This document shows, in pieces, positions 2,259 to 16,475 of a DNA stretch of 32,000 bases. The translations under genes were made by a program, and so were the position numbers. The notes under the pieces were generated by a model. It made no database searches, was not told where the DNA came from, and was given only the letters and a program-made list of their open reading frames with translations. This DNA is from Acetohalobium arabaticum DSM 5501. GTDB taxonomy: Bacteria > Bacillota > Halanaerobiia > Halobacteroidales > Acetohalobiaceae. Numbering within the stretch: position 1 is the first letter of the stretch; each line of letters begins with the position of its first letter. The stretch covers positions 2,293,289 through 2,325,288 of the forward strand of contig NC_014378.1 in assembly GCF_000144695.1 (NCBI RefSeq). Direction: 5' to 3'.

Positions 2259-2279
2259 GACTTCTACATCCTCCCGCTT

Positions 2280-2308
2280 ATCATAAAGATATTTCTGAGC
2301 ATAGTCAA
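2280..2308 (-). promoter_or_regulatory. Candidate sigma70-type promoter upstream of kdsC (TTGACT-17 nt-TATGAT)
   Basis: On the minus strand, -35 TTGACT is at 2308-2303, the spacer is 17 nt, and -10 TATGAT is at 2285-2280. Caveat: the predicted start (~2273) falls inside the kdsC Shine-Dalgarno GGGAGG (2275-2270), so function is doubtful. The -35 is one of the repeated TAGTCAA half-sites. Confidence 0.3.
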
Positions 2309-2338
2309 TATACTTTTACCACCTGCCATTCACGTCGC
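2301..2338. repeat. Inverted partial copy of the 3' end of the 122-nt element
   Basis: The reverse complement GCGACGTGAATGGCAGGTGGTAAAAGTATATTGACTAT aligns with element 3' ends: ...CGAACGAATGGCAAGCGTAAGAGATTTGTTGACTAT (16338-16369) and ...CCGAATGAGTGGCAAGCAGAAGAGGTATATTGACTT (2528-2562). Confidence 0.6.
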
Positions 2339-2386
2339 TTAAATCATTTAAGCAATCTGTCTCAGAAAATATTTCTTATTAACATA

Positions 2387-2413
2387 GTCAACATTTCTCC
2401 GAAGCGACTCTTA
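2387..2413. repeat. Partial copy of the 5' end (27 nt) of the 122-nt element
   Basis: GTCAACATTTCTCCGAAGCGACTCTTA matches GTCAACATTTCTCTGCAGCGACTCTTA (16245-16271) at 25 of 27 positions. Confidence 0.75.
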
Positions 2414-2439
2414 TTGGTGATAACAATCTATTACAGACA

Positions 2440-2561
2440 GTCAATATACCTCTGGCGCGACTCTTAAAAAGAACTTGGAGCCATGGACGGCGGAAAGTTC
2501 TTTTTTGAGAACGAATGAGGCAGGACGCCGAATGAGTGGCAAGCAGAAGAGGTATATTGAC
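2440..2561. repeat. 122-nt structured intergenic element, copy A (MITE-like or structured-RNA-like)
   Basis: Perfect 14-bp terminal inverted repeat GTCAATATACCTCT (2440-2453) / AGAGGTATATTGAC (2548-2561). Internal perfect 11-bp hairpin 2466-2476 / 2495-2505 with an 18-nt loop. Aligns without gaps to 16245-16366 (93/122 identical). Confidence 0.85.
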
Positions 2562-2577
2562 TTGCCCTGCAATACCT

Positions 2578-16110: not shown

Positions 16111-16173
16111 TAGAGCAAAGGAGGTAATTAATGGATTGATCAGGAAGATATTTCTTGTTTATAGTTACCTAGC

Positions 16174-16225
16174 ATAGTCGGTATAATCTCATTTATGATA
16201 TTGCAGGAATAGTCAATAGAAGTAA
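16174..16225. repeat. Cluster of degenerate element-terminus half-sites (TAGTCGGTATAATCTC, TAGTCAATAGAAG)
   Basis: 16175-16190 and 16210-16222 resemble the element 5' terminus (A)TAGTCAA(T/C)AT(A/T)(C/T)CTCT. The upstream AAGATATTTCT (16144-16154) is shared with 2286-2296. Confidence 0.5.
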
Positions 16226-16244
16226 ATATATTAGATTCCAACTA

Positions 16245-16366
16245 GTCAACATTTCTCTGCAGCGACTCTTAAAACTGACTCGGAATCATGGACGATGGAG
16301 AGTCAGTTTTTGAGAATGAGTGAGACAGGATGTCGAACGAATGGCAAGCGTAAGAGATTTGTTGAC
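16245..16366. repeat. 122-nt structured intergenic element, copy B
   Basis: Terminal inverted repeat GTCAACATTTCTCT / AGAGATTTGTTGAC (12 of 14 bp pair). Internal perfect 11-bp hairpin 16271-16281 / 16300-16310. Same length and orientation as copy A. Confidence 0.85.
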
Positions 16367-16425
16367 TATAATCTGCAATATCTTGAAAGTAACATATTAT
16401 ATAAATTAAACGTAAATTAACGTAC

Positions 16426-16460
16426 AAAAAGCAGTTTCTCACTAATTAGTGAGAAACTGC
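16426..16460 (-). terminator. Rho-independent terminator after the small OMP gene
   Basis: The minus strand reads GCAGTTTCTCAC-TAATTA-GTGAGAAACTGC (12-bp perfect stem, 6-nt loop) followed by TTTTT. It starts 16 nt after the OMP stop codon. Confidence 0.8.
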
Positions 16461-16475
16461 TTATAGCTAACTTAT

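Follow-up and report, generated by a model that had tools for sequence, protein, structure and literature searches.

The question raised by this locus is why an intergenic element should keep its helices while their sequence changes, and whether what is kept is a structured RNA, a folded single-stranded DNA or an ordinary dispersed repeat. The window, a stretch of 32,000 nt from Acetohalobium arabaticum DSM 5501 (G000:C1:2293289-2325288, G000 being the genome of this organism), contains two copies of such an element, A and B. They align without any gap over 122 nt each, with 93 of 122 positions identical.

2440..2561, plus strand: core copy A, a three-way junction (covariance model R1, G000 2295728-2295849, 138.5 bits)
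16245..16366, plus strand: core copy B, the same fold with another P1 and P2 "allele" (covariance model R1, G000 2309533-2309654, 140.7 bits)

A preliminary description had proposed a perfect 14-bp outer helix (P1) in copy A that pairs at 12 of 14 positions in copy B, and this was found to be correct, the two exceptions in copy B being T.T oppositions and two of its pairs being double changes (T-A to C-G and C-G to T-A). The 11-bp inner stem is, as had been stated, perfect in both copies, and the 4 of 11 pairs that differ all do so on both sides; the 18-nt loop and a small third hairpin at 2519-2529 are also as described. What had been overlooked is that this third hairpin forms the end of a long helix, P3, with invariant tandem G.A/A.G pairs, that the "18-nt loop" holds 3 further covarying pairs, and that copies A and B belong to a family of ~85 copies. 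Numbered within copy A, P1 is formed by positions 1-14 and 109-122, the inner stem corresponds to P2/P2b, and the tandem G.A pairs lie in P3. When the sequences were folded singly as RNA, copy A gave -48.7 kcal/mol (z -7.2) and copy B -43.1 kcal/mol (z -4.4), and the opposite strands gave -44.6 and -35.6 kcal/mol, respectively.

The genomic setting agrees with the preliminary description as well. All genes around the copies are on the minus strand, and copy A separates the gene of a KdsD-type SIS+CBS protein, whose stop is 16 nt away, from that of a KdsC-type HAD hydrolase, which comes after it, the domains of both flanking ORFs being recognized by Pfam. Copy B is located next to a small putative outer-membrane protein that adjoins lpxD, with an 813-aa ORF on the other side. 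The folding strand of both copies is the plus strand of the window, antisense to kdsD-kdsC and to the OMP-lpxD array.

The element is a module of a large, mosaic, MITE-like family, and not a two-copy curiosity. Counting copies with nhmmer had been proposed as a check, and an iterated search of the genome (a single 2,469,596-bp contig, 36.6% G+C) returned 65 full-length 122-nt cores on both strands, ~20 longer variants of ~231 nt whose inner stem has ~110 nt of inserted sequence in its apical loop, and additional fragments. The repeats are small, non-coding and multicopy, possess terminal inverted repeats and differ in presence between close relatives, as MITEs do, and there is hardly any doubt that they form a mobile repeat family.

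The fold was derived with RNAalifold from 57 distinct copies, which yielded a three-way junction. P1 pairs alignment columns 1-14 with 110-123 and is followed by a 2-bp GC clamp. P2 measures 10-11 bp and continues through a symmetric GGA/GGA internal loop into a 3-bp P2b with a 6-nt loop. In the long P3, two-pair Watson-Crick steps alternate with tandem G.A/A.G pairs, up to a 3-bp end stem with the loop AGGAN. The four G.A/A.G positions are invariant (57, 57, 55 and 57 of 57 copies) while the intervening Watson-Crick steps covary. Among 45 copies within the genome, 95.4% of the cells are paired, compared to 34-42% in controls in which the partner was slid, double changes occur at 23 of the 39 pairs, and in a shuffle control the observed score was reached in 0 of 500 cases. 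The helix "alleles" are discrete and combined differently among copies, yet the distant P1 arms still always match. Across lineages (25 distinct sequences) the paired fraction is 96.0%, with double changes at 32 of 39 pairs. These copies differ at most helix positions, and in a GC-rich lineage the P1 and P2 sequences are entirely different and the fold is the same. Among the unpaired nucleotides, conservation is seen for A-GCGACU (first junction), GGA in each strand of the P2 internal loop, the loops CA(N)GGA(N)G in P2b and CAGGA(N)G in P3 (both conserved across lineages), and GA..GAA.G.CAAG on the 3' side. The earlier suggestion that structure is selected in RNA or single-stranded DNA, rather than that the two copies are merely a recent duplication, is thus supported, since the fold recurs with different helix sequences in other genera. 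The same persistence of the fold through helix turnover largely refutes recent duplication and DNA-level palindrome repair as its source, and we are highly confident that the fold is under selection on one strand.

That only one strand keeps the fold is evident from several comparisons, and whatever reads the structure reads one strand. The consensus energy (RNAalifold) is -41.4 kcal/mol for the folding strand versus -27.5 kcal/mol for the other strand, and covariance model R1 scores 142 bits on the former versus 13 on the latter. GGA occurs 4.7-6.0 times per copy on the folding strand and 0.64 times on the other, with ~1.8 expected, and on the folding strand it is located in the two apical loops and on either side of the P2 internal loop. 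G.U pairs outnumber A.C pairs (43:19 within the genome, 21:6 across lineages), and on the complement the tandem G.A pairs become C.T/T.C.

To follow how the copies arrived in the window, the sites were compared with those in G001, a congeneric sister species, in which the genes flanking the copy A and B sites show ~80% nucleotide identity. The kdsD-kdsC spacing is 6 nt in G001 versus ~300 nt in A. arabaticum, and the intergenic DNA can be divided as follows.

2272..2577, no strand assigned: whole copy A insertion, ~300 nt, from the kdsD stop to the kdsC start; empty site in G001
2280..2308, minus strand: promoter-like TTGACT, 17 nt, TATGAT, directed outward to kdsC, as found by consensus scan only
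2304..2313, plus strand: solo 5' arm of P1 type, at the left border of the ~300-nt insertion; a TTGACT hexamer appears on its reverse complement
2387..2439, plus strand: truncated core (first 27 nt) joined to the common left linker with TGGTGATAAC
2562..2577, plus strand: right flank of copy A (..CTGCAATA..), common to most copies; outer inverted-repeat layer
16137..16470, no strand assigned: remodelled intergenic stretch around copy B, 334 nt versus 57 nt in G001
16189..16218, minus strand: inverted piece of the core right end with its flank, immediately left of copy B
16367..16389, plus strand: conserved right flank of copy B (TATAATCTGCAATATC..)

The copy A insertion is therefore a composite of a solo P1-type arm, a truncated core, a linker and copy A. 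Its ends are imperfect inverted repeats, and TTA is present at both junctions as a candidate target duplication. Since both window copies are missing from the orthologous G001 sites, they arrived as mobile or mosaic repeat DNA. The operon junction between kdsD and kdsC tolerates the 300-nt insertion, and, judging from the promoter-like TTGACT-17-TATGAT, kdsC may now be driven from the repeat. The genome of G001 holds a single core, which is orthologous to the copy at G000 2276891 and antisense to both of its neighbours.

Most A. arabaticum cores lie within larger units, of which we found 42. These bodies are 278-729 bp long and are bounded by a 17-bp terminal inverted repeat, ATTGATATATTGTTGCA. 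The typical order is left inverted repeat, wing, linker, an optional 66-nt module, core, tail and right inverted repeat. The wing is enclosed by its own 15-bp inverted repeat and has the AAGCGACT motif after the arm, as in the core; with a weak model match (8 bits, E 0.08), it is read as a putative inverted and decayed core-like unit. The final 30 nt of the tail resemble the core 3' end, and further repeat layers often flank the bodies on the outside. This architecture looks like repeated nesting of core-like units. Head-to-head core pairs occur, and the unit is a 122-nt branched fold, unlike the short (20-40 nt) palindromes of REP/REPIN elements. In A. arabaticum, 37 copies have the same orientation as the genes and 35 the opposite one, and because 94% of the genes follow replication, the orientation is also random with respect to replication. 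When target duplications were sought for the 42 bodies (lengths 2-9, with offsets), the best candidate was an A/T extending the repeat, the flanks being AT-rich and themselves repeated. A body located on the uvrB terminator T-tract in A. arabaticum has a shorter and unrelated spacer as its counterpart in G001, and for a second body that was compared, the orthologous G001 spacer contains other, longer DNA. Several copies of the wing module are present in G001 at 74-75% identity (C12:61578-61760, C2:150243-150388 and C27:128-271). The presence of several wings and one core in that genome means that the modules have separate histories.

An autonomous element with matching ends was not found, either among longer intervals between such ends or by clustering all multicopy ORFs. 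The longer intervals contain only IS3-family or group II intron ORFs that were inserted into the repeat, and the multicopy ORFs, which are TnpB, IS3, IS4-like (by eye) and IscB-like, do not bear the ends of the repeat. IS3-family elements (orfA/orfB) are located in two bodies near the right ends (G000:C1:639307-641170 and 2130381-2132097). An ORF with group II intron reverse-transcriptase motifs (G000:C1:2205447-2206283, minus strand) lies beside a long-variant core in a 2.3-kb interval between repeat ends, an arrangement suggestive of intron insertion into the repeat. The genome also encodes a 445-aa protein in 3 copies (G000:C1:1176959-1178296 and two others) whose N-terminus resembles the IscB PLMP domain, and ~30 TnpB-like frames, at least 11 of which are full-length copies of a 434-aa family with a defined right end, ..GAGTAGTTCAC.

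The distribution of the core extends beyond this genome. With the covariance model, strong matches were obtained in 4 of 5 other genomes of the family (1, 4, 16 and 7 matches), and the fifth gave a weak single match. There was no model match in 13 genomes of the sister family; in a phylum-wide sample, a second, unrelated family with ~60% G+C contained matches (9 and 1). A degenerate pattern scan identified Candidatus Frackibacter sp. WG13, Fuchsiella alkaliacetigena Z-7100, an "uncultured Clostridia bacterium" (FIZI01) and a Bacillota MAG as carriers, and its matches in Roseibium and Streptomyces fail the covariance model and are due to chance. In metagenomes, the core was found in a marine low-GC lineage, and tandem copies were found as well. 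Searches for plasmid or phage relatives of the core found none, and no protein gene recurs beside cores in the other genomes, the neighbours there being housekeeping genes such as rpoC, pnp and ribF. One core is located in a 23S-5S rRNA spacer (L124 / L188, the MAG Bacillota AS02xzSISU_7 and a metagenome contig), and another, in the uncultured Clostridia genome, lies ~70 nt upstream of a tRNA gene. From these positions it follows that such copies must be transcribed at a high level. The literature searched contained no published description of the fold. An Rfam comparison, also proposed in the preliminary description, gave no gathering-level match in the window, and a permissive search (2200-2800, E up to 10) returned chance matches only. 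Six full loci matched only plant miRNA hairpins, which are spurious and far below threshold. Family membership refers to Rfam 15.

In Frackibacter, in a related genus (G005) and in the marine lineage, the core stands outside any larger repeat and has the appearance of a gene. Upstream of it is a conserved block of ~45 nt, consisting of TATAGGAAATTAT, 8-15 nt and TGTGGATAAC, followed by 6-12 nt up to the first base of P1. In the same three lineages, the core is followed by a terminator-like T-tract, TTTGTTCTT, which adjoins P1 or is separated from it by a small GGCC hairpin. The upstream block usually starts a few bases past the intrinsic terminator of the preceding gene, and this gene is on the same strand at all 8 loci in Frackibacter and G005, and at 17 of 22 loci outside A. 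arabaticum. Consensus scans did not find a convincing sigma-70-type promoter before the cores, and a comparison by eye with the TCGATAA-type flagellin promoters gave no match of the upstream block to the local flagellar-sigma consensus. The conserved upstream block precedes just two of the A. arabaticum copies, G000:C1:130211 and 307577. At the former, the body is in the forward orientation and at the latter it is inverted, and in both orientations it lies between promoter-type and terminator-type flanks. Bodies could flip by recombination between the inverted repeats and in this way switch the RNA on and off.

RNA is favoured because upstream block, core and terminator together have the layout of a small RNA gene. 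The 122-nt element is most likely a structured RNA, and we consider it probable that it acts as RNA and not as single-stranded DNA. On balance, we lean towards the more specific reading that each 122-nt element is a conserved, strand-specific structured-RNA module, which is carried and amplified by small non-coding mobile repeats. According to this model, the element would stand alone as a gene in the Frackibacter-like and marine lineages, equipped with a conserved control region and a terminator of its own. In A. arabaticum, one core-like unit would have nested into another, bodies of 280-730 bp bounded by inverted repeats would have spread in either orientation, and the copies would have multiplied ~85-fold. 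In the favoured mechanism, the RNA itself would be a scaffold that presents hairpin and internal loops with GGA to a GGA-binding protein. Most A. arabaticum copies, including A and B, are probably transposition passengers and not individually functional genes.

An alternative that we regard as unlikely, but the most serious of those weighed here, is that the fold is needed as single-stranded DNA. In that case, the top strand would adopt its structure while the DNA is transposed or replicated, and its recognition would fall to a priming enzyme, a recombinase or a transposase of the HUH/Y1 type. Folded single-stranded DNA is what functions in the ssoA origins of rolling-circle plasmids, in integron attC sites and at IS200/IS605 ends, and the strict strand specificity, together with the conservation of structure rather than sequence, would fit such a role. 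Tandem G.A pairs are stable in DNA too, and the invariant junction motif (T)AGCGA presumably resembles the CS-6 hexamer of ssoA. The nested self-insertions and the 3'-end fragments beside full copies in several lineages, the placement of cores just past terminator hairpins, and the ~30 TnpB-type genes (IS200/IS605 family) in the genome point in the same direction. However, IS200/IS605-type mobility should bias the orientation, whereas 37 versus 35 was observed with 94% of the genes co-oriented, and the bodies are bounded by 17-bp terminal inverted repeats, which are typical of cut-and-paste elements. Moreover, a HUH or recombinase gene does not recur beside cores in any genome, plasmid and phage relatives were not found, and in three lineages the core is flanked by the conserved upstream block and a terminator. 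The TnpB-type genes also bring up a guide-RNA scaffold, the omega RNA of TnpB or IscB, on a palindrome-associated IS200/IS605 derivative. The ~30 TnpB-like and 3 IscB-like genes in the genome would be in line with this, as would one TnpB element that adjoins sequence like the core 3' end, but this single resemblance lies beyond the element end, the IS having landed in a core fragment. We mapped 28 TnpB frames and aligned the right ends of 11 full-length 434-aa copies, and these ends are conserved up to ..GAGTAGTTCAC, which is unlike the core. No core was detected at TnpB loci with nhmmer --max or the covariance model, except for two located 5' of 5'-truncated tnpB frames, and the core is not followed by a variable guide-like segment, its flanks being either conserved or a T-tract. 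In G061 (the uncultured Clostridia genome) and G001, a TnpB or IscB gene was not found beside those cores that have named neighbours; the core neighbours in Frackibacter, G005 and Fuchsiella were compared only among themselves, and none recurs. A TnpB/IscB guide-RNA identity was rejected on the basis of the unrelated TnpB ends, the missing guide segment and the lack of strand bias relative to replication, and we consider it highly improbable.

The element could also be an ordinary MITE with a functionless interior, whose arms are kept paired by template switching in quasi-palindromes, gene conversion between copies and recent bursts from a few master copies. The discrete helix "alleles" are reshuffled among copies, a pattern expected from conversion or recombination. 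Most of the copies in A. arabaticum are young insertions that are missing from the sister species, and their insertion orientation is random. Palindrome correction, however, would remove mismatches, while here the G.A/A.G pairs are invariant and the Watson-Crick pairs between them covary. In addition, in distant lineages the fold outlasts a full turnover of helix sequence and a shift from 37% to ~60% GC. Conservation extends to unpaired nucleotides in loops and junctions, there are two to three times as many G.U as A.C pairs, and the enrichment of GGA is confined to one strand. Taken together, this makes a functionless interior very unlikely.

If the structured-RNA module binds a protein, CsrA, the obvious choice in the Halobacteroidaceae, is the leading named candidate, a proposal that is itself rather doubtful. 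The CsrB repeat is CAGGA(U/A/C)G, and high-affinity CsrA ligands have GGA in 5-6-nt loops on stems of at most 4 pairs (PMC7652899). We found csrA in all Halanaerobiales genomes that are at least 90% complete, in all Halobacteroidaceae and in G105. In 5 of 5 Halobacteroidaceae checked (L146, L147, L145, L148 and L144), csrA adjoins a flagellin gene. A further Flagellin_N gene lies ~2 kb upstream of the csrA-flagellin pair, and this order is conserved in five Halobacteroidaceae. In the flagellin leaders, a TCGATAA-type promoter element is combined with a GGAGGA ribosome-binding site and a GGA hairpin of the kind present in the core, and the hag leader of Bacillus subtilis has comparable features. 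In contrast, neither csrA nor flagellin was detected in the 96% complete genome G061, which carries 9 cores with intact GGA loops; its sole weak csrA match is an S1-domain protein. CsrA as an obligatory partner was therefore rejected. Some marine copies do not have the apical GGA of P2b, and known Csr decoys need less structure than is provided by the helix with tandem G.A pairs and by the conserved junction GCGACU / GRCAAG. The full proposal, that the family is a regulatory small-RNA gene turned transposable whose GGA loops sequester CsrA or another GGA-binding protein, would be quite a long shot. If true, it would be the first Csr-type decoy RNA in a FliW-type, Firmicutes-related lineage, and the first decoy with a dosage set by transposition.

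Among known systems, the Csr/Rsm decoys (CsrB, CsrC, RsmX/Y/Z) are similar in being multicopy and in having repeated GGA in hairpins and single-stranded regions. The core P3 loop CAGGA(Y)G corresponds to the CsrB repeat, and the short 3-bp stems with 5-6-nt loops are as in SELEX ligands. The core matches these decoys neither in sequence nor in Rfam, and it differs from them in its rigid, deeply conserved architecture and in a GGA number of only 4-7 in each unit. It is found in FliW-type organisms, for which, to our knowledge, no Csr sRNA has been described. Like ssoA and attC, the core is a strand-specific folded element within the 60-200 nt range, with structure conserved more than sequence. 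Those elements act in single-stranded form, either on plasmids or in cassette arrays with an adjacent integrase, their DNA being what folds, whereas cores are dispersed over the whole chromosome on both strands, with no array and no plasmid relatives found. With the omega RNAs and PATEs of IS200/IS605 the core shares a non-coding structured RNA tied to mobile DNA in a TnpB-rich genome, but not the likeness to TnpB ends, the guide segment or the orientation bias. The Correia/nemis, ERIC, BOX and RUP MITEs resemble the repeats in their terminal inverted repeats, a size of 100-170 nt and an intergenic location; they are co-transcribed with neighbours and may bring outward promoters or processing sites, as may the repeats described here. 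They are essentially one long hairpin formed by the inverted repeats, while the interior of the core is a three-way junction with conserved unpaired nucleotides and nesting units.

The nearest described systems are mobile intergenic repeats with compensated RNA folds, above all bcr1. This ~155-bp repeat of the Bacillus cereus group behaves as a mobile element and keeps its RNA fold by compensatory changes (PMC3184786). Both families are small, non-coding and dispersed, with a distribution that is not conserved between close relatives, and both have a branched, compensated fold. There is no sequence relation between the two, and bcr1 is limited to a single species group and shows clear direct repeats of 5 bp, whereas the core fold is common to several genera and a distant Clostridia lineage. 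Unlike bcr1, the core has invariant tandem G.A pairs and GGA loops, and in some lineages, with its upstream block and terminator, it looks like a stand-alone gene. The depth of conservation, the non-canonical pairs and this gene-like form set the family apart and are unusual.

The family thus represents a well-supported candidate structured RNA class that is missing from Rfam and that spans at least 4 Halobacteroidaceae genera, an uncultured Clostridia lineage and marine metagenomes. Its covariation, with 32 of 39 pairs plus invariant non-canonical pairs, is among the cleanest that can be asked for. It also accounts for ~85 intergenic stretches of A. arabaticum that are rich in helices and, taken one by one, would resemble gene-specific regulators. 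Here a structured RNA module and a mobile repeat naturally coincide, which has a bearing on how small RNA genes multiply and on how MITEs gain functional interiors.

Finally, in three lineages full cores are followed within 6-30 nt by 1-2 short fragments of their own 3' end, comprising the junction motif and the P1 3' arm (L123, L126, L124, L189, L168, L082 and G000 near 2284836). These trailing fragments could be nested self-insertions or could provide an alternative partner for P1.
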